In this document: positions 30,324-55,614 of the stretch, one piece after another
Numbering within the stretch: position 1 is the first letter of the stretch
Layout of the letters: each line of letters opens with the position of its first letter
NCBI GenBank assembly: GCA_043818275.1
Contig: JBDRFY010000050.1
Span: forward strand, 5,387 to 69,386
DNA length: 64,000 nt
Direction of reading: 5' to 3'
DNA from: a bacterium
Lineage (GTDB): Bacteria > Babelota > Babeliae > Babelales > JAUWHS01
The notes under the pieces: model-generated
What the model was told of the DNA's origin: nothing
The model's database searches: none
The model's input: only the letters and a program-made list of their open reading frames with translations
Program-made: the position numbers and the translations under genes

Positions 30324-31187
30324 ATGAGCAGAACACAACAAGTTTACAAAATTGCAGGGCCGATAATTTTATCGGCCCTGTCTATTTTGATAAGTTTTAT
30401 CATTTTGCAACCAATTGCACTGCATCTAAATCCAAATTTCAATCTTCTTGCAAGCCGGGGAATTGGAAAAGTTGCATTTGTAACAATGATTATTTTGCAG
30501 CTTTTGCTTTTTCTTACCACCCAATCACAAAAATTTTTAAATAAATTCTTACAAACATCCCTTTATTTTTTTAAAGAAAAAAAATGGGTTAAAACTTTTT
30601 TAATTTATTTTGTAATATTTTTTATTCTTCACTCTCTTCTTTTAGTTCTTTTTTATTTTTTAGGTTATGCACAATACAACCCAAATTGGGGAAATGTTAA
30701 TATTGGATTAATACTAAAACTTATTTGGGGATTTTTTGTTGTTTTTATGCTTGCCTGGACTGAAGAATTAATTTTTCGGGGCATGATTTATCAATACATA
30801 AACCAGGAATTCAGCAAAATAACCAGCCTCTTTTCTGCCTCTTTAATTTTTATGCTGGCTCACGATTTAACAAACCCGTTAAATTTAATTACAAAAAACT
30901 GGAAACTTGGCCTTGGATTATTCTTACTCGGCTTTTTATTAAATACCGTTTTTGCCATAACTAATAAACTTTATGCCGGAATGGGAATACATGCCGGTCT
31001 GGTTTTTGTAAAAGTTGTTCTCAGAAAAGCAAGATTTTTAATCATTCCTGGCGCCTGTTTGCCATTCTGGTTAAATTCAGATTTAAGACAATGTTTAATT
31101 GTTCATATTTTGTTCGTTCTTTTAATTACAGGTTTGTTAATAAAATATAGAAAAATTTTATTAAATATTAAAACCCCACAAGTCTAA
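30324..31187 (+). CDS. CPBP-family intramembrane glutamic endopeptidase (CAAX protease/Abi fold)
   Basis: Polytopic membrane protein with WTEELIFRG (EExxxR) and FMLAHD (FxxxH) motifs. Confidence 0.75.
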   Translation: MSRTQQVYKIAGPIILSALSILISFIILQPIALHLNPNFNLLASRGIGKVAFVTMIILQLLLFLTTQSQKFLNKFLQTSLYFFKEKKWVKTFLIYFVIFFILHSLLLVLFYFLGYAQYNPNWGNVNIGLILKLIWGFFVVFMLAWTEELIFRGMIYQYINQEFSKITSLFSASLIFMLAHDLTNPLNLITKNWKLGLGLFLLGFLLNTVFAITNKLYAGMGIHAGLVFVKVVLRKARFLIIPGACLPFWLNSDLRQCLIVHILFVLLITGLLIKYRKILLNIKTPQV

Positions 31188-31871
31188 CACTTCTTCTTTA
31201 ACTTTTAGGTCCTGAATCATTTGAGTCCAATCCCGTTTTCCCAAACCCTCATTTAAGGCCGGAACTTTATTTCCTGCAAGATATATCTCTTTAATTTTTT
31301 TATTTCGCTTAAACAATGAAACTGGAATATGCGTTATTTTGTTATCTGCCAAATTAATCTGTTCCAGTGCAGACAAATTTCTGAATAAATCTCTTTTTAA
31401 TATTTTTATATCATTATCAGATAAATCCAGATCTTTTAATTTTCTCTGATTCATAAAAATTTGTGGCTGCAATTCCTTTATTTTATTGTTACTTAAATCC
31501 AGTCGTACCAACTTTTTCAAAGGAGCAAACGCGCCTTTTTCAATTTCACTTATTTTATTAAAAGACAAATCAAGTATTTCTAGGTTTCTAAATCTATTCA
31601 AATCATCCCGTTCTATCTTTTTGATTTTGTTATGATCCATGCGAATTTCTTTTATTTTTTTGCACGTCGAACCAAGGGCACTCTGAATGCCATCCAATGA
31701 TTTTATTTGCAATTTAGACAAATCCAGGATTCCATTTTTTTTAGAATCTTCAATCCGTTGCTGCAAAAGATTACGAATGTATTCTTGCTCTTTTTTAGAT
31801 TTGGGCTTAGAAATTAATAAATTTGAAAATAAGAAAGAAAAACAAACAACAAACAAAACAATTTTTTTCAT
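31161..31871 (-). CDS. Secreted leucine-rich-repeat protein
   Basis: AAGGAG RBS and signal peptide. At least six 24-residue LRRs (LEILDLSFNKISEIEKGAFAPLKKLVRLDLSNNKIKEL...). Confidence 0.85.
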   Translation of the reverse strand: MKKIVLFVVCFSFLFSNLLISKPKSKKEQEYIRNLLQQRIEDSKKNGILDLSKLQIKSLDGIQSALGSTCKKIKEIRMDHNKIKKIERDDLNRFRNLEILDLSFNKISEIEKGAFAPLKKLVRLDLSNNKIKELQPQIFMNQRKLKDLDLSDNDIKILKRDLFRNLSALEQINLADNKITHIPVSLFKRNKKIKEIYLAGNKVPALNEGLGKRDWTQMIQDLKVKEEVLDLWGFNI

Positions 31872-36048: not shown

Positions 36049-36157
36049 TTTTTTTTAACAAAACACTTTGAAAAACAATATTTTTCTATATAATTTACTT
36101 CACGTTTAAATGCTAAATTTGAAAATAATATTAACCATTTTTCAGAAAGGTGGCAGG

Positions 36158-36409
36158 ATGAATCTTAAAAAATATTTCTTTCTTTTCTCATTTCTTTTGG
36201 GCCTTAGTTTTTTAAGTCAAATAAATGCTTATACCTTAGATGAATTGCAAACAATGTTTAAAGATGTAGATATTACAAACGTAAAAGAAGTTATGAATCG
36301 AATGAGAGAAGTTAAATTTTTTGAAACTTATCCATATGCCAATATCGAAGAAACAGCAAAACAAATACAACAATTACTTCTTGAAAATGCAATACCACCT
36401 CAAAATTAA
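36158..36409 (+). CDS. Small secreted hypothetical protein
   Basis: The ATG at 36158 follows AAGGTGG. Signal peptide MNLKKYFFLFSFLLGLSFLSQINA. A terminator follows. Confidence 0.55.
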   Translation: MNLKKYFFLFSFLLGLSFLSQINAYTLDELQTMFKDVDITNVKEVMNRMREVKFFETYPYANIEETAKQIQQLLLENAIPPQN

Positions 36410-36435: not shown

Positions 36436-36470
36436 AACGGGCGAAGTTTAAAAACTCCGCCCGTTTTTTT
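36436..36470 (+). terminator. Rho-independent terminator
   Basis: aacgggcg...cgcccgtt hairpin followed by ttttt. Confidence 0.7.
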
Positions 36471-36589: not shown

Positions 36590-37783
36590 ATGAAAAAATT
36601 ATTATCTCTTTTGACTCTTCCTTTTTTAATAACCAGTTTTTATTTTCATGAAATTTCTTCAATGCAACAAACTAATACAAAATCTATTGCTAAACCAAAC
36701 TTACGTAAAAAACAAACTCCAGAAGAAAAAGAAAAGCCGGAACAAAAATTCACAGAAATCATTTTTGGCCAAACAGGATCATTTTCCGGTTCACTTAAAA
36801 CTTATGGCGAAATAATTAAAAATGCTATTGATGCCTGTTTTCAGGAAGCAAACAAATCAGGGGATCTGGGTGATGTAAAATTAAAATTAATAAGTTTGGA
36901 TGATAAAGGCAAAGCACAGCTCGCAGCTAAAAATATAAAAAATTTATTTGATGAAAATAAAATATATATGTTTTTGGGTTGCACCGGAACACGGGGTGTG
37001 CTAAAAGTTTTACCATTAATTAAATCAGGCAAAATAGCCATGTTTTTTCCATGGGGAGGTGACCCAGAATTAATGCAACAAGATTTAACTTATCAAATTA
37101 ACGGTTTAGGTTTAATAGAACCGCAAACAGAAAAATTAATTGATTATATTGTCAATGAACTCAAATTAACCAAGATAGGAATCTTTTGCTCTGATGGAGA
37201 TTTTTCACAAAAATCAGCAAATATTGCGATAGATCAATTAAAAAAAGTTGGAATCAAACCTGTTCAAAATGTTAATTATAATCGTTTTACAATGAATATA
37301 AAAAGACCATCCAAACAATTAATTACTTATGATCCAAAAGTCGTTTTAAGTTTAGGTACAAGTATGCCAACAGCCAAAATGATTGAATATTTTTTTAAAG
37401 CCGGAAATTTTGGGACTAATTTTTTGGGAATTGATTCAACTTTATTTGTCAGTGAAATTTTAAAAGAAAAAAACGTAAACTTTGAATACTCATCCTGCGT
37501 TCCGGACCCAAAAAACATTGAACTTCCAATCGTAAAAGAATATCAGGAAGTTCTCAAGAAATATTATCCTGAAGAAACTTTTAATATTTTATCATTAGCT
37601 TATTACATTCAGGCAAAAATAATTATTGAAGCAATCAAAAAGATATCAGGTCCCATAACAAAAGAAAAAATAATATCTGAGATCGAAAACATGATAAACT
37701 TTGATTTAGGTGGCTTTAAAATAAATTTTGATTCACAAACAAGATATGCTTTTGGAAAAGATGTAATAATTTTAAAGGGATAA
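36590..37783 (+). CDS. Periplasmic substrate-binding protein, type I (LivJ/LivK-like amino-acid-binding fold)
   Basis: Signal peptide. IIFGQTGSFSGSLKTYGEIIKNAIDACFQEANKSGDLGDVKLKLISLDDKG...MFLGCTGTRG is typical of Peripla_BP_6-type proteins. No ABC permease or ATPase gene lies nearby. Confidence 0.65.
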   Translation: MKKLLSLLTLPFLITSFYFHEISSMQQTNTKSIAKPNLRKKQTPEEKEKPEQKFTEIIFGQTGSFSGSLKTYGEIIKNAIDACFQEANKSGDLGDVKLKLISLDDKGKAQLAAKNIKNLFDENKIYMFLGCTGTRGVLKVLPLIKSGKIAMFFPWGGDPELMQQDLTYQINGLGLIEPQTEKLIDYIVNELKLTKIGIFCSDGDFSQKSANIAIDQLKKVGIKPVQNVNYNRFTMNIKRPSKQLITYDPKVVLSLGTSMPTAKMIEYFFKAGNFGTNFLGIDSTLFVSEILKEKNVNFEYSSCVPDPKNIELPIVKEYQEVLKKYYPEETFNILSLAYYIQAKIIIEAIKKISGPITKEKIISEIENMINFDLGGFKINFDSQTRYAFGKDVIILKG

Positions 37784-37785
37784 AT

Positions 37786-38865
37786 ATGAAATTTTCATTT
37801 AAATTAATGAAAACAGCAAAGTTTCAACTTACAGCTATAATTATTGCAATATTTTATGTAGTCGGTCTTCTTTTATGGCAAAATTTTTCAACCTTTTATG
37901 CGGAAGAAATATTTACTTTAAATAAAGTTGAAAAAGCAACAAAAAAACTGGCTAATAATGTTACAGTTGGATTATACATCAACAATTTTCCATCTTTTGA
38001 TTTTGATAAAAATCAGTTCATTATGGATGCTTTTTTGTCATTCAGATTTGAAGTTGGAACTGAATCAATAGACACAATTTCTAAATTTTCATTCAGAAAC
38101 ACTAATCTTCAAAATTTAGGTGTTTTATATCAATCAGAGCCGATGATAAAATTAATTGGTGATGATGTCATGATTTCATATCACATCCAGGTTGAATTCA
38201 AAGCGCCGCTTGAACAAAAATATTTTCCTATAGGAGACCACAGATTAAACATAATTTTGGAAAACAGAAGCACATCACCAAACGAATTGATATTTAATTC
38301 CAGCCTTGATGATTTTGTATTATCAAAAGATTTGTTCGTATCTATCTGGCAACCAAAACAAAAAATGGTGCAATCTGGCTATTTAATATCTAAATTAAAT
38401 GAAAAAGATCCTTCGTTAAATATTAAATATCCAGCTGTTGTTTTTACAATTGATTTTGAAAATATCAGCAATAGAAATTTATATACTTTATATTTCCCGA
38501 TGTTTGTTATTTTTCTAATCGGATTACTTTCTCTAACTATAGAAATAGCAGAAATTTCAAGATTGGCATTGGTAGCAGCATCATTACCAATTTTAGTATT
38601 ATTCAGAACGGCAATTGACGCAATATCCCCTGAAGTCGGAAAAATTACAAAAGTTGACTTTGTATATTTTTTATTAGTTTTCCTTTCATTATTAATTCTT
38701 TTATTCCAGGCATTTATAACTTTAAATCTCAAAAAAATTAAAAAATTAGATGAAGAAACACAAAAAAGAAAAATTACCAGAATGGAAAACTTGAATAATC
38801 TGTTTTTTATTATTATCATTCTACTTCTTGTTGCGGCTATAACTTATGACACTTTTGTTAGATAA
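37786..38865 (+). CDS. Prokaryotic pentameric ligand-gated ion channel (Cys-loop receptor family) homolog
   Basis: N-terminal signal anchor. Beta-rich ectodomain: VTVGLYINNFPSFDFDKNQFIMDAFLSFRF, and the loop region FKAPLEQKYFPIGDHRLNIILEN, which resembles FPFDxQ. Four C-terminal TM helices follow, with the conserved Arg after M1 (LTIEIAEISRLALVAASLPILVLF). Confidence 0.6.
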   Translation: MKFSFKLMKTAKFQLTAIIIAIFYVVGLLLWQNFSTFYAEEIFTLNKVEKATKKLANNVTVGLYINNFPSFDFDKNQFIMDAFLSFRFEVGTESIDTISKFSFRNTNLQNLGVLYQSEPMIKLIGDDVMISYHIQVEFKAPLEQKYFPIGDHRLNIILENRSTSPNELIFNSSLDDFVLSKDLFVSIWQPKQKMVQSGYLISKLNEKDPSLNIKYPAVVFTIDFENISNRNLYTLYFPMFVIFLIGLLSLTIEIAEISRLALVAASLPILVLFRTAIDAISPEVGKITKVDFVYFLLVFLSLLILLFQAFITLNLKKIKKLDEETQKRKITRMENLNNLFFIIIILLLVAAITYDTFVR

Positions 38866-38886: not shown

Positions 38887-40155
38887 ATGCTATTTTTTAT
38901 TACATATCAGGTAATACAAATATTACTTTTACCTTTTTTTGTTATTTTTCTTTTCCTAAGAAAAATAAAACGCAAACCAGTATTTGGATCATTTAAAGAA
39001 CGTTTTGGCCTTATTCCAAAAAGCCCTACAAATAAAAAAATAATATGGATTCAGGCGGTTTCAGTCGGCGAAGTTCTTTCAATTCAGGATTTAATTAATA
39101 AAATAAAAAAAGAAATTCCAGATTCTTTTTGTTATTTAACAGTCGGAACATTATCAGGCAAAAAAATAGCACAGAATAAAAAAATTGGTGATCAAATAAG
39201 TTTTTTACCCTACGATCTTCTTCCTTTAATGTACTTAGCTTACAAACGAATAAAACCATTTAAAATAATTATTGCTGAAGCTGATATATGGCCAAACTTT
39301 TTATACCTTGCCAAATTAAAAAAAATTCCACTTTTTATAATTAATGCGCGAATGAATGACAAATCAAAAAACAAATATCATAAATTCAGATTCATCTTTA
39401 AAAATCTTTTTAATATCGCCCAAAAAATTTTCACTCAAAGTGAAAAAGATACCAATGAATTCAAAATCCTTGGTGTTAAAAAAAATAAACTTGAAACATT
39501 GGGAAATATTAAAATTCCAAATGTTCTGGAAAAACAAAAAAATACAATCTTGCCTAAAATTAATTTAAATTATCCAATACTTCTTGCGGGCTCCATTCAC
39601 ACCGGAGAAATGGATATTTACATAAATTTATTTAAAAAGCTAAAAATTACTTTTTCTAATTTAAAAATTATAATTGCCCCTCGACATTTTCATTGGCAAG
39701 AAGAATTATTGGAAAAATTAAGACTATCACAAATAAATTTTATTTCCTGGCAAGATAAATATTGCAACATAACAATCATTGAAAAATTAAATAATTTTGA
39801 TGCATTAATCGTCTTAAAACTCGGTGAACTTTTTAATCTTTATCCTTTTTGCAATATCTTTTTTTTGGGTGGAACATTTGTTCCTATTGGTGGGCATAAT
39901 TTACTTGAGCCTGCCGCATGGAGTAAACTTTCAATAATTGGGCCTTATGATTCTAATTGCAGGGTAATCGCTGATGAGCTTGAAAAAAACAATGGTTTAA
40001 TAAGAGTTAAAAATGAAAATGAATTATTTATTCAAACTAAAAATTTATTAGAAAATAAAAAATATATTTATATGGGAAAAAATGCGCATGATTGGTTGGA
40101 AAAAGAAGCAAAAATTGTAAATGCAAAATTAAATAATTTCATTGAAGAATTGTAA
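38887..40155 (+). CDS. waaA: 3-deoxy-D-manno-octulosonic acid (Kdo) transferase
   Basis: IWIQAVSVGEV is the WaaA signature. Also ADIWPNF and GGTFVPIGGHNLLEPA. Confidence 0.85.
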   Translation: MLFFITYQVIQILLLPFFVIFLFLRKIKRKPVFGSFKERFGLIPKSPTNKKIIWIQAVSVGEVLSIQDLINKIKKEIPDSFCYLTVGTLSGKKIAQNKKIGDQISFLPYDLLPLMYLAYKRIKPFKIIIAEADIWPNFLYLAKLKKIPLFIINARMNDKSKNKYHKFRFIFKNLFNIAQKIFTQSEKDTNEFKILGVKKNKLETLGNIKIPNVLEKQKNTILPKINLNYPILLAGSIHTGEMDIYINLFKKLKITFSNLKIIIAPRHFHWQEELLEKLRLSQINFISWQDKYCNITIIEKLNNFDALIVLKLGELFNLYPFCNIFFLGGTFVPIGGHNLLEPAAWSKLSIIGPYDSNCRVIADELEKNNGLIRVKNENELFIQTKNLLENKKYIYMGKNAHDWLEKEAKIVNAKLNNFIEEL

Positions 40156-40161
40156 AAATAA

Positions 40162-40183
40162 ATCCCGGTGTTTAATCCGGGAT
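40162..40183. terminator. Shared hairpin terminator between the convergent waaA and lon genes
   Basis: atcccgg tgtttaat ccgggat, with A/T runs on both sides. Confidence 0.55.
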
Positions 40184-43020: not shown

Positions 43021-44475
43021 ATGCAAGTTAATGATGAGGTTGACAACAAGGATGAAGAAAAAAAATCTCTTTCGAATTTATTGTGGGGAATACAAAAAGA
43101 GTTTCGATTAAAAGTATTTTTTCAGGCTGCAACATTTCTTCTAATGTCTTCTTGCTTGGCTATCTGGAGACCTTTAAAAATTTCTGTTTTTTCAAAAATA
43201 GTTGGCTCAAGTTACATTCCGGAAGCAAAACTTTACAGCCTGTTTTTTTTGATTCCTCTAATCATTTTTTATTCAAAACTTGTTGATATTCTCAGAAGAC
43301 ATCAACTTTTATACTGTTTCAATCTGTTTCATGGCGCGGGTGGAATTATCCTTTATTATTTTTTATCCCATCCTGTTTATGGAATAGCAAATACGGATAC
43401 CAGCCCTTATAGATTAACCGGCTGGTTTTTTTATTTTTTCATGGAAAGTTTTAATGCTTTTTTGTCAACAGTTTTTTGGTCTTTTGCTGATTCAATAAAT
43501 AAACCTAAAGATGCTCAAAATTACTATGGACTAATTGTTTCTGGATCTAAGATTGGTGGAATTTTATCCGCGGGTAGCCTATATGTTGCAATAAGTTTTT
43601 TCACTTCTACAAGCAATTCAGTTCTACTATCAAATTCTCTTCTTATTGGAAGCCTAATGTTATTTGCTGCCGCGGGATCAATATATTTTTTAATAAAAAT
43701 GGTTCCCGGATATTACATGCATGGATACGAAAAGGTTTATCAATTAGAAAAACAAAGAGAACCAGAAAAGAGCGTGCTTCAAAAAACTTCTGGCAATTGG
43801 ATAACAGGTTTTATTCAAAGTATAAAAAAAGCCTTTGAGGGATTAATAATTATTTTAAAAAATCCATACGTCCTGGGAATTTTTTCAATAATAATAATCT
43901 ATGAAATTATGATTGTTATTATTGATTACAGAGTCGCAATTACTGCAGATATAGCATTTCCATCAGTTGGAAAAATGACTCAATATTACGCTTTATATTA
44001 TTTACTCATGAATTCAGTTGGTCTTGTTATTTCATTTTTTGGCACAACCGCAATATTAAAATTACTTGGAATTAGAATTTCTCTTTTTATATTTCCTTTA
44101 GCGAGTGCGGCTATAATTTTAATAACATTTTTTTATCCGACAGCAACAATTTTCTTCATAGCGCTAGTCACCTTAAGAGCTCTTAATTATGCATTAAACC
44201 ATCCAATAAGAGAAATTTTGTATATTCCCACAATTAAAGATATAAAATTTAAAGCAAAAGCATGGACGGATGCTTTTGGTTCAAGAATAGCAAAAGGCGG
44301 AGGATCATTTTTTAATATTGGAATGAAAAAAGCAACTCCGGCATTTGCATTATTTTTTAGTACAGCACTAACAATGGGATTAATTTCTATTTGGTTTGTA
44401 ATTGTTTATTTCTTGGGAAAAACACTCAAGGATGCTCTTGATAATCAAAAAATCATTGGTAATAAAACAGATTAA
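43021..44475 (+). CDS. ATP/ADP translocase-family nucleotide transporter (TLC/Npt), copy 1
   Basis: GGGGAG RBS. About 12 TM helices. WRPLKISVFSKIVG, FWSFADSINKPKDAQNYYGL, LRALNYALNHPIREILYIPTIKDIKFKAKAWTDAFGSR are colinear with TLC-family motifs. Confidence 0.75.
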   Translation: MQVNDEVDNKDEEKKSLSNLLWGIQKEFRLKVFFQAATFLLMSSCLAIWRPLKISVFSKIVGSSYIPEAKLYSLFFLIPLIIFYSKLVDILRRHQLLYCFNLFHGAGGIILYYFLSHPVYGIANTDTSPYRLTGWFFYFFMESFNAFLSTVFWSFADSINKPKDAQNYYGLIVSGSKIGGILSAGSLYVAISFFTSTSNSVLLSNSLLIGSLMLFAAAGSIYFLIKMVPGYYMHGYEKVYQLEKQREPEKSVLQKTSGNWITGFIQSIKKAFEGLIIILKNPYVLGIFSIIIIYEIMIVIIDYRVAITADIAFPSVGKMTQYYALYYLLMNSVGLVISFFGTTAILKLLGIRISLFIFPLASAAIILITFFYPTATIFFIALVTLRALNYALNHPIREILYIPTIKDIKFKAKAWTDAFGSRIAKGGGSFFNIGMKKATPAFALFFSTALTMGLISIWFVIVYFLGKTLKDALDNQKIIGNKTD

Positions 44476-44507: not shown

Positions 44508-45971
44508 ATGAGCGCAGTTATTACAGAAGAAAACAACTTAAATCGCGACAAATATCATGAAATACTAAAGGTCTCTCTTCTCTCCGCAATATTTTTTTGC
44601 ATAATAGGCTCTTACTCAATTCTTCGCCCCTTGAAAACATCAATTTTTTTTAGTATTGTTGGCAAAGAATATCAGCCATTAACAAAATTCATATCTATCT
44701 TCGCACTTATTCCCGCGCTATTACTTTATGCCAAATTAATAGATAAACTTAAACGGTATCAGGTTGTTTACCTTTTCTTTTTTTTATATGCAGGTTTATC
44801 AGTTTTATTTGCGTATCTTCTAACAAATTCAACAATTGGCTTGCCAAACACAAATACTAGCGTAAATAGAATATTCGGTTGGATATTTTATTTATTTGTT
44901 GATTTGTTTTCACCATTAATAGTTAGTACTTTTTGGGCGTTTGTAAATTCAATTTACATACCAAACAAAGCACAAAAGAATTATGGAATAATTGTTGCGG
45001 TATCGAGAGTTGGTGGAATATTAACAACCGGTTTTAGCTGGTTATTAATAAATCAAACTAGTTTAGCCTCATTTAATACAATACCAATACTAACAGCAAT
45101 TCCGGCAATTTTATTAATAGCAGCCGGATTTCTTTTAAAGGGTATGAAAAAAATTCCGAAAGAACATCTAATTGGATACGAAGAACAACATTCTAAAGAA
45201 CAAAATCTTTCCAAAAAAGAAAAAACGGGGATTTTGGAAGGATTACAACTTATGTTTAAACAACCATATGTTTTTGGTATTTTTGGATTAGTTTATTCTT
45301 TTGAAATAATATCTGTAATTTTTGATTATCAGATGCAGGTATTAATATCTATCGCAAATAACAATGAACTCGGAGGTATGACATCATATATGCTTCTTTA
45401 TACCGGAAGCTTTCAAGTCTTGGCTCTTATTTTTGCCATTTTTGGAACATCCAGACTTTTAAAATCTATTGGAACAAAAAAAAGCCTTCTTCTTCCTCCA
45501 ATTGCAACTATAATTTTAATTTTAAGTCTTTTATTTCATCCAGGTTTAATAACTATTTTTATTGTGATGGTGGTACTCAGAGCTTTACATTACGGATTTA
45601 ATACACCTGTTCGTGAAATTTTATACATACCAACAACAAAAGATATAAAATTTAAATCCAAATCCTGGATAGATTCATTTGGAAGAACTCTATCAAAAAC
45701 ATCCGGTTCCACTTTCAATTGGTTTGCACAAAGCCCTAATTATCTTTCAATAATTAGATTAGATTCTTTGTTTTGCCTGGGAATTGTTGGTGTTTGGGGT
45801 GTTATTTCATTTCTAGTTGGCAAAAAATATGAAATAACAGTTGATTCTGGTGAAATTATAGGTCAAAGACGGGAATTAAAGCCAGCACAAAAAGCAGAAG
45901 AACCTACAATTCAAAAAAATCAAATCGAAACGGATATAGCAAAACCTTCTTATACAGCCAAAACCAAATAA
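44508..45971 (+). CDS. ATP/ADP translocase-family nucleotide transporter (TLC/Npt), copy 2
   Basis: Paralog of the upstream gene. ILRPLKTSIFFSIVG, FWAFVNSIYIPNKAQKNYGI, LRALHYGFNTPVREILYIPTTKDIKFKSKSWIDSFGR. Confidence 0.75.
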   Translation: MSAVITEENNLNRDKYHEILKVSLLSAIFFCIIGSYSILRPLKTSIFFSIVGKEYQPLTKFISIFALIPALLLYAKLIDKLKRYQVVYLFFFLYAGLSVLFAYLLTNSTIGLPNTNTSVNRIFGWIFYLFVDLFSPLIVSTFWAFVNSIYIPNKAQKNYGIIVAVSRVGGILTTGFSWLLINQTSLASFNTIPILTAIPAILLIAAGFLLKGMKKIPKEHLIGYEEQHSKEQNLSKKEKTGILEGLQLMFKQPYVFGIFGLVYSFEIISVIFDYQMQVLISIANNNELGGMTSYMLLYTGSFQVLALIFAIFGTSRLLKSIGTKKSLLLPPIATIILILSLLFHPGLITIFIVMVVLRALHYGFNTPVREILYIPTTKDIKFKSKSWIDSFGRTLSKTSGSTFNWFAQSPNYLSIIRLDSLFCLGIVGVWGVISFLVGKKYEITVDSGEIIGQRRELKPAQKAEEPTIQKNQIETDIAKPSYTAKTK

Positions 45972-48033: not shown

Positions 48034-48645
48034 ATGAACACAAACAATTCAAATTTAAATCTTGCGCGAAAATGGCGGCCAAAAACATTCAATGAAATTG
48101 TTGGCCAAAATATTCCTATAAAAACATTACTAAATGGTCTTTACTTAAAAAAGTTTTTTCCTGTGTACCTTTTTGCCGGACAGAGGGGATGTGGAAAAAC
48201 TTCATCTGCAAGAATATTTGCTGCGGCTATCAATTGTCAAAACTTAAAAAAATTTCAGGAAGATCCAAAAGAAAAAATCCCGTGCCTGGAATGCGAATCT
48301 TGCCAACCAATGCTGAAAAATAACCATCCCGATTTTATTGAAATTGATGCGGCTTCACATACCGGAGTTGATAATGTCAGACAAATTTTGGAAAACAGTT
48401 CTTATATGCCGCTTGCCGGAAATAAAAAAATATACCTAATTGATGAAGCACATATGTTAAGCAAAGCAGCTTTTAATGCTTTTCTAAAAGTTCTGGAAGA
48501 ACCACCAAGTACAGTGTTATTTATTTTGGCAACAACAGAGATTCATAAAATTCCAGAAACTGTTCTTTCAAGATGCTTTCAGGTTATATTTCGCCCAATA
48601 AATTCTGACGACTTAAAAAAACATTTAATTAATTTAAGTAAGTAG
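48034..48645 (+). CDS. dnaX: DNA polymerase III gamma/tau subunit, N-terminal AAA+ part (reading frame interrupted)
   Basis: RPKTFNEIVGQ, GQRGCGKTSSARIFA, zinc module CLECESC, Walker B YLIDEAHML, SRC motif. A TAG stop occurs at 48643..48645, inside domain II. Confidence 0.85.
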   Translation: MNTNNSNLNLARKWRPKTFNEIVGQNIPIKTLLNGLYLKKFFPVYLFAGQRGCGKTSSARIFAAAINCQNLKKFQEDPKEKIPCLECESCQPMLKNNHPDFIEIDAASHTGVDNVRQILENSSYMPLAGNKKIYLIDEAHMLSKAAFNAFLKVLEEPPSTVLFILATTEIHKIPETVLSRCFQVIFRPINSDDLKKHLINLSK

Positions 48646-49742
48646 AAGAAATTTTAATTGATGAACCGGCTATAAATATAATTATCGAAGAGACAGAAGG
48701 TTCTGCTCGAGATGCAATAAATTTACTTGAAAGAGTTCGATTTTCTTCACAAGAAATAACTGAAGAAACAATTTTAAGTGTTTTGGGTAAAATTAGTGAA
48801 AAGGTTCTTCTGGATATTTTTGAAAGCTTAATTGATCAAAATGTTCCTCAACTTTTAAAACAACTTGTCAATATCAACTTTCAAAGTCTGAATCCACAAA
48901 TTTTTTGGAATTCATTAATTCAAACGTGCAGAAATCTGATGTGGGTAAAATACGAAACTGATATAAAAAATAGAAACTTTGAAAAATTAAAAAAAGCAAC
49001 TGAAAAATGTAGCATCAACAGAATACATGCAATATTTCAGTTGCTTTGGAATCAGGAACCAATTTTTTTACAAACATCGCAAAAACATATTTTTCTTGAA
49101 TCAGTTTTAATCCAAATTTGTGAGCAAACAAAAATTGAAGATTTAACCGAGTTAATTGAAAACTGCAAAAACCAAAATATTAATTCTGATACCCCACCAA
49201 TTCAACATTCACCAAAATATATTCAAAAAAATCCAGTCAACACACAACAAGAACAAGGAACAAACTCTTTTGCGTCAACAACAAATAATTCAGACAATCA
49301 TCTATGGAATCAATTTTTAGAAAAAATAAACAATTTATCTGATCACATGATTTCTTCAATTCTAAAACAAGCCACATTTATTAAAGAAAACAAAGAAAAT
49401 AAGGTTATTTCTATAGGCTTGCATAATGACAACCAGTTTTTAAGAGACCAAATAGAAGAAAGTAAGCCTTCATGGATAACATTTCTACAAGAAACATTTC
49501 CCGAAATAAATGGCTTTGAATTTGAAAAAGTGGAAAAAAAAGAAACTTCAGCTCCAGCACCACAATCAAATATAAAACAAACACAGAACGACCCTCAAAA
49601 CACTAGAAACTATCCATCTCAAAGCTATAATCCGCAAAACCATACTCCACAAACCATCATTGATATATCCGATAAAGAAAAGTGGCCAAAGGCTAACTTG
49701 ATAATCCAACACTTTCCCGGTAAAATAAAGCTATCAAAATAG
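48642..49742 (+). CDS. dnaX: DNA polymerase III gamma/tau subunit, remainder in the -1 frame
   Basis: Frame 3 is open from 48642: VEEILIDEPAINIIIEETEGSARDAINLLERV. This is the conserved sensor-2 region, and it lies upstream of the first possible start codon at 48783. The C-terminus is Q/N/P-rich. Confidence 0.8.
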   Translation, partial: VEEILIDEPAINIIIEETEGSARDAINLLERVRFSSQEITEETILSVLGKISEKVLLDIFESLIDQNVPQLLKQLVNINFQSLNPQIFWNSLIQTCRNLMWVKYETDIKNRNFEKLKKATEKCSINRIHAIFQLLWNQEPIFLQTSQKHIFLESVLIQICEQTKIEDLTELIENCKNQNINSDTPPIQHSPKYIQKNPVNTQQEQGTNSFASTTNNSDNHLWNQFLEKINNLSDHMISSILKQATFIKENKENKVISIGLHNDNQFLRDQIEESKPSWITFLQETFPEINGFEFEKVEKKETSAPAPQSNIKQTQNDPQNTRNYPSQSYNPQNHTPQTIIDISDKEKWPKANLIIQHFPGKIKLSK

Positions 49743-49795: not shown

Positions 49796-51133
49796 GTGAA
49801 AAAAATGAAAAAAATAAAAAAATATCCAAAGGTTTTACTCGTTGGTCGGACCAATGTTGGTAAATCAACACTTTTTAATCGTTTGACAGAAAAAACAAAA
49901 AGTATTGTTTTAGACACTGAAGGTGTGACTCGCGATTACATTCATGAAGTTATCGAATGGGATAAAAAATCATTTGATCTGGTTGATACCGGTGGTGTTA
50001 GTCTGCAAAAAACAACTGATCCTATTTTAAGCAAAATTCAGGAAAAGGTTTTTGATTTATTTAAAAAAGCATCAGTTATCGTTTTTTTATGTGATGTAAA
50101 ACATGGAGCAACAGAACAAGATAAAAAAATCGCAAAACTTTTGCACAAAAATAATAGACCTACAATTCTGGCTGTTAATAAAATTGACAATAAAACCGCA
50201 TATGAAGAAAATTTTTCAGAATTTTACAGCTTGGGATTTAAAAATATCATTGAAATTTCAGCAACACATGGAATTGGAACTTCAGACCTTCTTGACGAAA
50301 TAGTTAAAGAAATTCCTGAGTGTTTAGAAGAGGGAGAAGAAGAAAAACCGGTATACCGCGTAGCAATAATTGGAAAACCAAATGTTGGTAAATCTTGTTT
50401 AATGAATCTTTTAATGCAACAAGAACGCTCCATTGTTTCTGATATAGCAGGAACTACCAGAGAAGCCATTTCTGAATTAACTTATACAAGTGAAAATTTA
50501 ATTCGGTTAACAGATACACCTGGTATTAGAAGAAAAGGCAGGGTTGAAGAAACAATAGAAACTTTAATGGTAAAAAGTTCGTTGGAAACAATCAGAACAT
50601 CAGACATTGTAATTCTTGTAATTGATGCAAGCAGCCTTATATTGTCACACCAGGAATTAAAACTTCTTGATTATTCTTATCAGGAAAAAAAATCAATAAT
50701 CTTAGTTTTAAATAAAATGGATCTTCTTAATGAAGACGATAAAAAAATGTTAAAACACAACCTGTCTGAATATGATTTTCTTTTAAAGAAAATTCCCACA
50801 ATTATGGTTTCATGCCAAACTAAAAAAAATGTTCATAAAATTTATAAAGAATTAGAAGAATCCTGGGTCAGAAGAATTCAAAAATTTGACAACATACAAC
50901 TCGATGAAATCATAAAAGAAAACTTACTGGGAAAACCTCTTTATCACAAAGGAATACAGCTTAAACTTTTCAAAATCAGACAAATTAAAGATGCAAGAGT
51001 TCCAACATTTCAAATTTTTGTAAACTATCCTGATTGGTTTGAAGAAAGCCAATTAGGGTTTTTAGAAAATATCCTTAGAAGAAATTTTAATCTTAAGGGA
51101 TGTCCTGTCGTTTTTGTAAAAAAAGAAGTTTAA
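49796..51133 (+). CDS. der: Ribosome-associated GTPase Der (EngA)
   Basis: Two G domains (GRTNVGKSTLFNRL...DTGG; GKPNVGKSCLMNLL...DTPG) and a KH-like C-terminus. The start may be the ATG at 49805. Confidence 0.9.
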   Translation: MKKMKKIKKYPKVLLVGRTNVGKSTLFNRLTEKTKSIVLDTEGVTRDYIHEVIEWDKKSFDLVDTGGVSLQKTTDPILSKIQEKVFDLFKKASVIVFLCDVKHGATEQDKKIAKLLHKNNRPTILAVNKIDNKTAYEENFSEFYSLGFKNIIEISATHGIGTSDLLDEIVKEIPECLEEGEEEKPVYRVAIIGKPNVGKSCLMNLLMQQERSIVSDIAGTTREAISELTYTSENLIRLTDTPGIRRKGRVEETIETLMVKSSLETIRTSDIVILVIDASSLILSHQELKLLDYSYQEKKSIILVLNKMDLLNEDDKKMLKHNLSEYDFLLKKIPTIMVSCQTKKNVHKIYKELEESWVRRIQKFDNIQLDEIIKENLLGKPLYHKGIQLKLFKIRQIKDARVPTFQIFVNYPDWFEESQLGFLENILRRNFNLKGCPVVFVKKEV

Positions 51134-51135
51134 AC

Positions 51136-51918
51136 ATGGAATTTTTGCGGATTCTAAACTTAAATCAAACACTGTCAAACAAAAAAATATTAAATGATAT
51201 TTCTTTAAATGCTGACTTAGGAAACATCGTAGCTCTTTTAGGACCAAATGGCGCTGGAAAAACAACTTTATTAAGAACAACAATTGGCTTGCTTAAAAGT
51301 CCCAAACATGATGAAGCAAATAAGAAAAATTTAATTTTTCTAGATAATGAAATTATTAATAAATGGCCAATTTACAAACGAATTGACAAGGGATTAGTTT
51401 ATTTACCTCAGCATTGCTCTCTATTTTCCCAAATGACTGTTTTAGATAATTTAAAATTAATTTATAAATACCATAATTACTGGAAACCTTTTAAAAAAGA
51501 AAAATTCAGAGAAAATATGCTTTTTTGGCTTGAAAAAACACAAATGGAGCACTCTTTAAAACAACTGGCCGGGAATCTTTCTGGTGGGCAAAAAAGAAAA
51601 TTGGAAGTTATACGATCAATTTTAATGCATCCGAAAATGATTTTACTTGACGAACCATTTGCCGGAGTTGATCCAAAATCAATTTATGAATTAAAAAAAA
51701 TCTTTCAAAATATGGCTCAAGATAAAATCGCTGTTTTAATTTCTGATCATAACGTTGATCAACTTTTATCAATCGCTGATAAAATTTATGTAATAATTAA
51801 TGGCGAAGTAATAACATCAGGAGACATTAAAGAAATAATGGAAAACGATTACACCAAAGAAATGTATTTCGGTAGACAATTTTATTCAGAAATGAGTCAA
51901 CGTTTTTTAAAACAATAA
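51136..51918 (+). CDS. lptB: LPS export ABC transporter ATP-binding protein LptB-like
   Basis: The ATG at 51136 lies just after the der stop. LLGPNGAGKTT, LSGGQKRKLEVIRSIL, LLDEPFAGVDP. Confidence 0.8.
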   Translation: MEFLRILNLNQTLSNKKILNDISLNADLGNIVALLGPNGAGKTTLLRTTIGLLKSPKHDEANKKNLIFLDNEIINKWPIYKRIDKGLVYLPQHCSLFSQMTVLDNLKLIYKYHNYWKPFKKEKFRENMLFWLEKTQMEHSLKQLAGNLSGGQKRKLEVIRSILMHPKMILLDEPFAGVDPKSIYELKKIFQNMAQDKIAVLISDHNVDQLLSIADKIYVIINGEVITSGDIKEIMENDYTKEMYFGRQFYSEMSQRFLKQ

Positions 51919-53877: not shown

Positions 53878-55614
53878 ATGATAAATTCATCATTCAAGTT
53901 TAGAAAATTAATTCTAGGCCTCATTTTGCTCAATTTTGTATCATTGCCTATTTTTGGCAAACCACCCAAATTAACAGTTGTCCTGGTAATAGATCAATTT
54001 GGATATCAGTATATTCAAAAACTACAAAATAACTTTAATTATTCGTTTAACTTTTTATTAAATAATGGAATCATTTATACAAACGCGCATCATCCTCATG
54101 GCGCCCCAACAACTGGAACAGGTCACGCGGCAATCGGAACAGGATGTTATGCAAAGGATCACGGAATAGTTTTAAATTCCTGGGTTACACCCGAAGGTAA
54201 AAAAACTAATTGTTACGATGATGCTTCAAAAGATTCTGCTGTTTTTGGTGAAAATAAACTTTGCGATTATGGAATATCAGCAAAAAGAATGATGGTCGAC
54301 AGCCTTGCTGATCAATTTATTCATGCTTCAAAACCGGATTATCCAAATAAATCGTTTTCATTATCATTCAAGCCACGCTCAGCAATTGGTATGGGTGGAC
54401 ATTTAAGTAAAAACATATGGTTTGATGAAGAAACGGGACTTTTTACTTCGAGCAAGGCATTTTTTGATAAACTTCCTGAATGGGTTAACCGTTTTAACAA
54501 AAAGAAAAACATAAGCAAAATAAAAGAAATTTCATGGAAACTTTGTTATCCAAGAAAAAGCAAATATTACAAATTCAAAAATATTGATATCAATGAAAAA
54601 ACTGATTATAAATTCGCAGGATACAAAAAAAGTCTAATTTCTCCTCCCGGAAAAATGACTCCAAATGACCCTAAAGAATTTGAAAAAAATTCTTATGAAA
54701 GCAATCCATATGAAATATTTCAAAGAACTCCACTTGCGAATGAAACATTACTTGAACTATCAAAAGAATGTTTAAAAAATAATTTCAATACTGAAAAAAA
54801 TGAAACTTTTTTATTGTGGGTTTCTTTATCTCCGCTTGATCCGCTTGGACATATATATGGACCGCAAAGTCTGGAAATAACAGATATGATTTATCACCTG
54901 GACAAACAAATAAAAGATTTTTTTAAATTAGCTCAAAAACTTGCCGGCAAAAAAGAGTTATTTTTTGTTTTAACAGCTGATCACGGATTAGAAGAAATTC
55001 CTGAAATTATGCAAATTGATGGATACAAAAAAGCTGTAAGAATAAATGTTAAAACCTTAATTAAAGAAATGAACGATTTAATTAATAATAAATACGAAAT
55101 CTCAGATTTAGTTTTAGACTTTAGAACATCAATGTTTTATCTCGATCAACAAAAATTTAAAAAATTAAAGAAAGAACAAAGACATGAAATTTTAAACGAT
55201 TTAAAAATCTTTTTAAAAAAACAGAACGGTGTAAAAAATATTTGGACTTACAATGAACTTAAAAATTCAACTTTTGAACCATATCAGCTTGAAAATTTTT
55301 ATAAAATGCAACTTTACCCTGAAAGAAGTGGTCAACTTATTTGTCAACCTCAACCATACTCCGTTTTCACACCTTATCCGACAGGAACTTCTCACCGCTG
55401 CGCGTATAATTTTGATACAAACGTTCCTTTATTTTTGTATCAAAAAGGAAAATATGAAAAAAAATATATAAACGAAAAAGTCTGGGTCCCCCAACTTCCT
55501 GTAACGTTGGCCAGAATTTTGGAAATTGCAAAACCATCAGCTTCTCCATTTGAGCCCCTACCGGGAATAAAATTTGATACGGCAGAAAGTAATTTTTTTC
55601 AATGGATTAATTAA
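53878..55614 (+). CDS. Alkaline-phosphatase-superfamily phosphodiesterase/phosphatase (NPP/PafA-like)
   Basis: AAAGGAG RBS and signal peptide. VVLVIDQFGYQY, HGAPTTGTGHAAIGTGCYAKDHGIVLNSW, LTADHG. Confidence 0.7.
   Translation: MINSSFKFRKLILGLILLNFVSLPIFGKPPKLTVVLVIDQFGYQYIQKLQNNFNYSFNFLLNNGIIYTNAHHPHGAPTTGTGHAAIGTGCYAKDHGIVLNSWVTPEGKKTNCYDDASKDSAVFGENKLCDYGISAKRMMVDSLADQFIHASKPDYPNKSFSLSFKPRSAIGMGGHLSKNIWFDEETGLFTSSKAFFDKLPEWVNRFNKKKNISKIKEISWKLCYPRKSKYYKFKNIDINEKTDYKFAGYKKSLISPPGKMTPNDPKEFEKNSYESNPYEIFQRTPLANETLLELSKECLKNNFNTEKNETFLLWVSLSPLDPLGHIYGPQSLEITDMIYHLDKQIKDFFKLAQKLAGKKELFFVLTADHGLEEIPEIMQIDGYKKAVRINVKTLIKEMNDLINNKYEISDLVLDFRTSMFYLDQQKFKKLKKEQRHEILNDLKIFLKKQNGVKNIWTYNELKNSTFEPYQLENFYKMQLYPERSGQLICQPQPYSVFTPYPTGTSHRCAYNFDTNVPLFLYQKGKYEKKYINEKVWVPQLPVTLARILEIAKPSASPFEPLPGIKFDTAESNFFQWIN

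Follow-up and report, generated by a model that had tools for sequence, protein, structure and literature searches.

This report concerns a pair of adjacent genes in a 64,000-nucleotide stretch of DNA from a Babelales bacterium (contig JBDRFY010000050.1, positions 5,387 to 69,386; hereafter, the window), which we propose encodes a binding protein and the ion channel under its control. [quoted passage not shown] On balance, we are inclined to accept that together they form a PBP-dependent ligand-gated channel, in which docking of the PBP with its ligand at the apex of a homopentamer's ectodomain gates or modulates the pore. In the periplasm, the stand-alone PBP would capture a ligand that is small and probably bears an amine, the liganded protein would dock on the membrane-distal ectodomain of the homopentameric pLGIC, and docking would open or modulate the pore, so that, in a Dependentiae (TM6) parasite, a chemical signal from the host environment would be turned into ions flowing across the inner membrane. 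A preliminary description of the window had listed these two open reading frames (ORFs) with exactly these coordinates, strand and 2-nucleotide (nt) spacing, and had suggested a sensor in which the ligand of the channel, plausibly an amino acid or an amine, is delivered or gated by the PBP, an idea that fits the comparative evidence presented here. In our best reading, the locus is a split form of the PBP-pLGIC fusions for which cooperation was predicted by Tasneem, Iyer, Jakobsson and Aravind in 2005 (Genome Biol 6:R4).

The two genes are tightly joined. The TAA stop codon of the PBP gene (37781-37783) is followed by AT and then by the ATG of the channel gene at 37786, and the last PBP codons (..K-G-stop) themselves make a Shine-Dalgarno (SD)-like sequence, AAAGGGA (37774..37780, + strand), 5 nt before this ATG. 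With a junction that reads AAAGGGA-TAA-AT-ATG, the PBP and channel genes are, as far as the sequence tells, translationally coupled.

Judged from family profiles and a predicted fold, the 359-aa protein is a genuine, very divergent pLGIC subunit. A single-sequence search of the PDB gave a marginal result (E 0.008), with glycine receptors and a GLIC chimera at the top, the alignments keeping register between the 'FP' loop and M3. When 35 family members were combined in a profile, it matched GLIC at E 1.7e-9 to 4e-8 and found 170 distinct chains at E ≤ 1, of which the top 60 were all pLGICs, and hhalign aligned the channel family to GLIC with 94 % probability (E 1.5e-7, 202 columns). The protein was modelled as a monomer with AlphaFold2 (AF2), with a predicted local distance difference test score (pLDDT) of 89.9 and a predicted template modelling score (pTM) of 0.80. 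When this model was compared with the PDB using Foldseek, 1,107 chains were matched at E ≤ 1e-3, and the top 50 listed were all pLGICs (GlyR, GABA-A, GluCl, GLIC, sTeLIC and DeCLIC), aligned at full length over 324-367 columns with target-normalised template modelling scores (TM-scores) of 0.57-0.77; the best value against GLIC was 0.77. The family profile (GLIC at about 2e-9), the hhalign result and the structural matches thus uphold the earlier claim of pLGIC homology. The two peptides quoted in support of that claim are also where they were said to be, with VTVGLYINNFPSFDFDKNQFIMDAFLSFRF at residues 59-88 and the Cys-less loop YFPIGDHRLNI at residues 146-156, and the layout proposed for the protein, a beta-rich ectodomain followed by four transmembrane helices, is seen in the AF2 model, which has a fifth, N-terminal transmembrane helix besides.

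Curated profiles give a different answer. Of the two profile matches that the preliminary description had expected, the one to Peripla_BP_6 was found in the PBP (E 1.1e-29), and the one to Neur_chan_LBD or Neur_chan_memb was not found in the channel: no pLGIC family in Pfam or NCBIfam matches the 359-aa protein even at E ≤ 1, and precomputed Pfam domains were given as '-' for all 48 of its 48 close homologues. The conclusion that the protein is not a pLGIC, which the missing match would have implied, was considered and is overruled by the family profile, hhalign and the fold. The family so defined is large: in an exhaustive profile search, 2,848 cluster representatives scored E ≤ 1e-3, with 355 reaching E ≤ 1e-30; among the members checked, none has a pLGIC Pfam match, and those that are named are called 'hypothetical protein'.

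The elements of the predicted fold can be placed on the sequence. A conserved KFQL motif precedes an N-terminal transmembrane helix, 'M0' (residues 11-34, 37816..37887), which is itself conserved and well modelled (pLDDT ~91), and which may be kept as a fifth transmembrane segment and not cleaved as a signal peptide. The predicted periplasmic ectodomain follows (residues 45-228, 37918..38469), consisting of a short helix and a beta-sandwich (57-226), which carries the beta2-beta3 loop motif G91-T92-E93-S94 (38056..38067), our candidate PBP-docking site, and the Cys-less Pro-loop (38221..38253), in which F147-P148 is invariant. The membrane domain comprises M1 (residues 230-248, 38473..38529, with the conserved proline P238), the pore helix M2 (residues 258-280, 38557..38625), M3 (residues 289-318, 38650..38739, with D291, at 38656-38658, near its start) and M4 (residues 323-357, 38752..38856), all encoded on the + strand. 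Since the turn between M3 and M4 has only about 4 residues in the model, the channel would have no intracellular domain. Conservation was counted over 150 family representatives, 41 close and 109 from a sister clade. The hallmark prolines P148 (Pro-loop), P238 (M1) and P282 (M2-M3) are conserved in 149, 148 and 149 of them, respectively, and align to the Pro-loop, M1 and 23' prolines of GLIC, although the aspartate of the Pro-loop is shifted by one position (FPIGD versus YPFD).

HMMER and hhalign agree on the register of M2, which places R259 at 0', A261 at 2', A265 at 6', P268 at 9', L272 at 13', R274 at 15' and D278 at 19', with P282, at 23', just beyond the helix. In known pLGICs, position 9' is a conserved Leu/Ile gate. 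Here it is Pro in 30 of the 41 close representatives and Thr or Ser in 83 of the 109 sister representatives, and Leu is uncommon in both. A gate could instead be formed by L272 at 13'. The basic residue at 0' is R or K in 36/41 close representatives, and the acidic residue at -3' (E256) is D or E in 26/41; the combination of E256 and R259 is compatible with a cation channel. An arginine at 15' is present in 126 of the 150 and D291 in 143, and R274 and D291 possibly form a buried intrasubunit salt bridge. The family-wide lack of the 9' Leu, the 9' Pro and the frequent 15' Arg would also suit a non-conducting receptor of pLGIC fold, serving as a scaffold or conformational transducer for the PBP. 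Against this, the 4-residue M3-M4 turn leaves no place for a cytoplasmic output domain, and the 2', 6' and 13' residues, the 0' Arg and the -3' acidic ring resemble a normal pore, so we regard this possibility as extremely unlikely.

The identity of the upstream protein is more straightforward. It matches Peripla_BP_6 at E 1.1e-29 and 104.6 bits (cut-off 31.7) over profile positions 4-326 of 343, in line with its earlier description as LivJ-like, and its best solved relative is the LivJ-like PDB entry 4kv7 (E 5.8e-28, residues 57-374). Residues 1-55 (36590..36754, + strand) form a hydrophobic N-terminus, either a signal peptide or an anchor, which lacks a lipobox and is followed by a K/E/P-rich linker, and residues 56-397 (36755..37780, + strand) form the two-lobe binding domain. 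Its orthologues form a tight Dependentiae-specific clade (E ≤ 1e-81), sharply apart from generic LivJ-like proteins (E ~1e-29), and share the hydrophobic N-terminus, then a variable K/E/T-rich linker of ~10-90 aa. Because of this N-terminus and linker, and since a lipobox-like motif occurs in only 2/78, the PBPs of the clade may be membrane-tethered.

Alignment with LivJ predicts Y72, T131, W155, F204, S258 and D282 as pocket positions. In the LivJ-Leu structure, S79, T102, Y202 and E226 bind the alpha-amino acid, with its alpha-ammonium group held by the acidic E226 and its alpha-carboxylate contacted by T102 and Y202. Y18, S79 and E226 are matched in the PBP by Y72, T131 and the nearly invariant D282, whereas the carboxylate contacts are not conserved (T102 is replaced by the variable G157, and Y202 by S258) and A100 is replaced by a nearly invariant W155. 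The classical Leu/Ile/Val site does not, on this alignment, appear to be preserved, and an amine-bearing ligand is plausible; the sequence supports no finer class.

The pairing of the two genes recurs across related genomes. Our scan for related loci, which took one genome per species and used the 35-sequence family alignment minus its distant members, returned 14 loci, all in Dependentiae-like metagenome-assembled genomes (MAGs). Of the 12 with upstream sequence, 10 have a PBP orthologue immediately upstream of the channel and encoded on the same strand. Looking from the other side, we found a channel directly downstream of two members of the PBP clade, in TM6 GW2011_GWF2_37_49 and in a JGI contig, and there is a further pair at P0025. 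In total, 13 of 16 informative Dependentiae/TM6 loci (the window and 12 others, with genome GC contents of 26-42 %) carry the pair, in at least four different neighbourhoods, which answers positively the neighbourhood survey that the preliminary description had put forward as a check. The intergenic gap is 2-3 nt in 7/13 loci, where the conserved '...KG-stop' codons act as the SD sequence; four other loci have 11-17 nt and an SD sequence apart from the PBP codons, L020 has 125 nt, and in L012 the gap could not be placed. P0048, a distant homologue (GC 54 %), has no adjacent PBP.

A pairing of this sort might still be a matter of inheritance. If the PBP were an ordinary subunit of an ABC importer with its permease encoded elsewhere, its adjacency to the channel could be inherited synteny without function; NCBI and JGI do name the family 'ABC transporter substrate-binding protein', most of the loci lie within a larger syntenic block, and the channel is sometimes found with no adjacent PBP. 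Nevertheless, the same-strand pair, mostly 2-17 nt apart, is kept where both flanks have changed, namely to a hydrolase and WD40 (L004), MutS2/CPT and HEPN/TLC (L010), LRR and Dcd/ThyX (L019) and FtsK and Ank (L020). Moreover, independent fusion and operon forms tie the same two families, an ectodomain motif disappears along with the PBP, as described below, and no Liv importer genes were seen in what was examined. The preliminary description had noted that no ABC permease or ATPase flanks the PBP, and indeed the neighbours are RodA, a 99-aa ORF, WaaA and Lon. Neither a permease nor an ATPase of the Liv type is encoded in the 64-kb window, and in those related loci that were examined, neither annotation nor searching revealed one next to the pair. 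The sole ABC ATPase of the window, at 51100..51918, lies between Der and HPF (ribosome hibernation factor), with no adjacent permease, in what we take to be the usual place of LptB. The Chromulinavorax genome paper lists the ABC systems pot, opp/dpp, lol, fep, tro and znu, and liv is not among them. We therefore consider unrelated neighbours very unlikely, and the annotation of the PBP as an ABC-transporter component is probably wrong.

A PBP with no visible ABC partner in the window could also serve uptake by another route. The pentamer might be a passive conduit for the uptake or release of a PBP-bound solute, for instance an amine or small organic cation that the parasite takes from its host, and thus be closer in function to the secondary transporters that depend on a substrate-binding protein than to a signalling channel. 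The small pore-lining residues A261 and A265 and the missing 9' Leu gate would suit such a role, as would the reliance of the Dependentiae on imported metabolites (Chromulinavorax genome paper) and the presence of two ATP/ADP translocase genes near the pair. On the other hand, passive conduits are unable to accumulate substrate, and the PBP's relatives point to signalling: the two closest PBPs from outside the clade among those we examined lie beside a chemoreceptor with HAMP and MCPsignal domains and beside a dCache histidine kinase with a response regulator, and not beside ABC genes. Furthermore, we know of no pLGIC that acts as a nutrient transporter. This makes the conduit decidedly unlikely. 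The first of these relatives, P0130 (L021:5001-8535), is the nearest PBP outside the Dependentiae clade and lies directly upstream of the 753-aa chemoreceptor, in a genome that also encodes a Chlam_PMP-like protein; from its sequence, the arrangement looks like a PBP-dependent chemoreceptor pair.

Additional links between the two superfamilies come from the sister clade, whose systems we call type B to distinguish them from the type A pair described above. Five channel-first representatives of 971-1,109 aa (P0209, P0227, P0241, P0263 and P0272) have a C-terminal region that matches the window PBP in all five cases (E 1e-18 to 5e-36), and in P0209 and P0272, Pfam also recognises Metallophos and Peripla_BP_6. 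Since P0209 retains M4, as read from its sequence, the fused domains should lie on the periplasmic side. One fusion was confirmed as a single ORF (L015:8001-11312) on a 38-kb contig. At L017:5001-8586 and L018:3533-6908, a separate gene for a 768-826-aa protein with Metallophos and Peripla_BP_6 domains starts 10 nt downstream of a second-tier channel gene of ordinary length; one of these two operons is in a Babeliales genome. Thus, as judged by domain matches, the same two superfamilies are joined in three ways: as PBP-channel pairs, as channel-phosphoesterase-PBP operons and as fusions. In type B systems, the periplasmic phosphoesterase may generate the ligand for the PBP domain.

We also considered whether types A and B derive from the duplication of one ancestral pair, in which case their PBPs should be specifically related. 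We do not adopt this view, as the type B PBP domains (91-118 bits against the window PBP) are no closer to it than generic LivJ-like proteins (109-121 bits), and the association of channel and PBP may have arisen more than once. Several other members of the family have N-terminal extensions. In P0195, P0196, P0202, P0204, P0222, P0233, P0234 and P0255, about 200-230 aa precede the pLGIC module; these are multi-transmembrane in the five examined, with a weak DUF5985 match in P0195. The close homologues P0166, P0168, P0170, P0173, P0175 and P0178 have extensions of 250-1,200 aa. The idea of a PBP fusion was rejected for P0166, P0168, P0170, P0175 and P0178, which have no Pfam domain there and no similarity to the window PBP, and the extension of P0173 does not resemble the window PBP either; all six may be gene-calling run-ons or unknown fusions.

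A further indication of a contact between the two proteins comes from the channels that lack a neighbouring PBP. Two of these, L008 and P0047, are mutual closest relatives, both with the order RodA-then-channel, while the nearest relative of the third, L007, is the paired L011; there have therefore been two independent PBP losses. A search for PBP pseudogene remnants in L007 and L008 found none at E ≤ 10. Compared with the paired channels, L007 and L008 show nearly the same identity in the transmembrane domain as the paired channels do (45.7 versus 46.2 %), whereas their own ectodomain is more diverged (37.7 versus 45.2 %). Within it, the beta2-beta3 motif G91-T92-E93-S94 is kept as [GAT][TA][EQ][STA] in 13/13 paired channels and is replaced by KEID, NKKD and NKNL in the 3/3 PBP-less channels. 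The loss of E93 was seen first in L007 and L008 and was then used to predict two more sequences, and the prediction held: P0047, with no motif, has no adjacent PBP, and P0025, with the variant ATQS, has one. In pLGIC topology, the beta2-beta3 loop faces outward at the apex of the ectodomain; in the nicotinic acetylcholine receptor of muscle, this is the 'main immunogenic region'. It is thus plausible that the GTES loop is the site at which the PBP docks, and the co-loss of motif and PBP suggests such docking.

The same data bear on another mode of action, the ligand hand-off that Tasneem et al. (2005) proposed for fused or operonic PBP, Cache and MCP-N domains. In this model, the PBP only enriches the ligand close to the membrane and then passes it on to the channel's own orthosteric site between subunits, so that the small molecule itself is the agonist. 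The AF2 model does contain the beta7-beta8 and beta9-beta10 segments, which we assign to loops B and C, and N160, S162, T164 and E167 of the loop B segment are conserved. In addition, the three loci in which the channel has no adjacent PBP imply an intrinsic gating stimulus; given that these channels are kept, the channel is presumably able to work alone. Covalent fusions and a surface motif lost with the PBP are nevertheless better suited to a stable protein-protein contact than to hand-off, which we consider unlikely. We thus prefer gating by the PBP-ligand complex. In its most explicit form, the agonist would be the liganded PBP seated on the apical GTES loop and opening a pore with Pro at 9', which would make this the first such pLGIC, and the channel would sense host metabolites in obligate intracellular Dependentiae. 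We offer this full version tentatively and would not expect every part of it to hold.

Several observations weigh against a PBP-gated channel. Curated pLGIC families do not recognise the channel, and conduction is not assured, as the canonical 9' Leu is absent. Synteny explains part of the conservation of the pair, given that most loci share the larger block RodA/SbcC, pair, WaaA, Lon, TLC, TLC. Three channels (L007, L008 and P0047/L023) have no adjacent PBP, which may be encoded elsewhere in those genomes, and the co-loss of the motif amounts to only two independent events. The type A and type B PBPs are not specifically related, so their pairings are possibly of separate origin. Finally, the absence of a Liv permease was checked in 64 kb, not genome-wide.

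How does the pair compare with known systems? Tasneem et al. (2005; Genome Biol 6:R4) reported N-terminal PBP-I fusions to pLGICs in the alpha-proteobacteria Magnetospirillum and Bradyrhizobium, and in addition stand-alone PBP-II or Cache genes in pLGIC operons; cooperation was predicted from architecture and neighbourhood. The preliminary description had been right to credit this paper with fusions to periplasmic binding domains. The window and 12 further loci show what these authors defined, a pLGIC with a neighbouring PBP-superfamily gene, in same-strand adjacency. Both sets of systems combine a pLGIC core with a PBP-type module. Here, by contrast, the module is a separate Peripla_BP_6 gene that precedes the channel, the channel clade is invisible to Pfam, the hosts are Dependentiae, and in the sister clade, Metallophos and PBP domains come after M4. 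Little is understood of the accessory domains that prokaryotic pLGICs carry, the N-terminal domain of DeCLIC being the sole one studied, and that domain is a fused Ca2+-binding one, not a PBP. The channel resembles GLIC (as well as ELIC, sTeLIC and DeCLIC) in its full-length fold, Cys-less Pro-loop, M1 and M2-M3 prolines, basic 0' residue and lack of an intracellular domain. It differs from GLIC in its low identity (~14 %), extra N-terminal transmembrane helix, 9' Pro in place of Ile/Leu, 15' Arg with an Asp at the start of M3, and obligate-looking partner protein.

Docking of a soluble, liganded PBP on the periplasmic domain of a membrane transducer, in a role other than transport, is well established in MBP-Tar, GBP/RBP-Trg, LuxP-LuxQ, TorT-TorS and ChvE-VirA. 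In MBP-Tar, LuxP-LuxQ and their kin, however, the output is a kinase or chemotaxis domain, whereas here it would be an ion pore, and the analogy is functional, since the membrane partners are not homologous. With LivJ/LivK, the PBP shares its Pfam family and fold and the matches to Y18, S79 and E226, but it has no cognate permease or ATPase genes in the window, does not conserve the T102 and Y202 contacts, has W155 for A100 and carries a long variable linker. In the eukaryotic receptors iGluR, mGluR and GABA-B, too, a clamshell resembling type I PBP/ANF_receptor senses the ligand for a signalling protein in the membrane, a channel or a GPCR, but theirs is fused, to another pore or transducer family, while here a separate PBP accompanies a Cys-loop-type pentamer. 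To our knowledge, no system of cooperating PBP and pLGIC has been tested experimentally.

Our literature search on ligand-gated channels in Dependentiae and on pLGICs with substrate-binding proteins returned no relevant prior description, and the terms looked for in Jaiteh et al. (2016) turned up no discussion of accessory domains. New here are the separately encoded PBP-I partner, the Dependentiae channel clade missed by Pfam and NCBIfam, and the C-terminal phosphoesterase-PBP fusions and operons, together with the motif co-loss that points to a docking site and a pore without the canonical 9' leucine.

As for the transcription unit, an intrinsic terminator at 36436..36465 (no strand assigned; a 13-bp GC-rich hairpin with flanking T/A runs, AACGGGCGAAGTTTAAAAACTCCGCCCGTTTTTTT), found by a terminator scan, ends the upstream 99-aa ORF and marks the 5' boundary. 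Downstream, waaA (Kdo transferase, 38887..40155, + strand) begins 21 nt 3' of the channel gene with no terminator between them, and a bidirectional terminator hairpin from the same type of scan (40162..40183, no strand assigned), between waaA and the convergent lon, gives the 3' boundary. Here, waaA is probably co-transcribed with the PBP and channel genes in a three-gene unit, although other genomes do not always keep it with the pair. A sigma-70 promoter scan gave 23 hits against 26 expected from shuffled sequences, so no promoter position was assigned. A scan for a riboswitch or other RNA upstream, sought as a clue to the ligand, found nothing near the gathering score. The 99-aa ORF itself (36110-36409), located between rodA and the PBP gene, has a predicted N-terminal hydrophobic segment and the strong terminator after it; Pfam gives no match for it, and tblastn none in any of the related loci, so it may be specific to the lineage or no gene at all.

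The window (GC ~30 %) has other features that bear on the lifestyle of its owner. Besides RodA, Lon and the Kdo transferase, it encodes leucine-rich repeat (LRR) proteins, as well as two tandem, diverged nucleotide translocases of the TLC ATP/ADP type (43021-44475 and 44508-45971, ~35 % identical to each other), a tandem that is syntenic across most related loci. Translocases of this type are a hallmark of energy parasitism. In NCBI, the exact proteins are named 'MAG: hypothetical protein ABIA74_03110 [bacterium]' for the channel and 'MAG: ABC transporter substrate-binding protein' for the PBP, and the homologues are mostly labelled Candidatus Dependentiae, Babeliales or TM6, a few MAGs being labelled otherwise. 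These labels and the two translocases agree with the host-dependent setting assumed in the preliminary description. A 236-aa LRR protein (31161-31871, - strand; LRR_8, E 3.6e-31) has an N-terminal hydrophobic segment resembling a signal peptide, and the related loci L004, L014, L019 and L020 repeatedly encode proteins of the LRR, ankyrin and WD40 kinds; they are likely host-interaction effectors. The dnaX gene appears as two ORFs, at 48034-48645 (203 aa, ATPase/delta-prime-like) and 48783-49742 (319 aa, gamma/tau domain III), with ~140 nt between them, which could reflect a frameshift, an assembly error or a genuinely split gene. A 578-aa type I phosphodiesterase/nucleotide pyrophosphatase (53878-55614; Phosphodiest, E 1.2e-31) adjoins a lipid A acyltransferase gene and may be relevant to nucleotide scavenging.

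The stimulus and role of bacterial pLGICs are essentially unexplained, and GLIC and ELIC serve as structural models. A pLGIC with a separately encoded PBP would allow the ligand to be found by screening the soluble protein, and the natural fusions could be used for structural work. The candidate docking motif G91-S94 and the unusual pore (9' Pro, 15' Arg and D291) are features that can be mutated. Furthermore, judged from the members checked, at least 355 representatives (E ≤ 1e-30) of a family of pLGIC fold are apparently outside the curated families. If our proposal is true, gating of a pLGIC by a binding protein in complex with its ligand would be seen here for the first time, and it would provide a physiological role for a bacterial pLGIC, with Dependentiae parasites sensing the host environment electrically.

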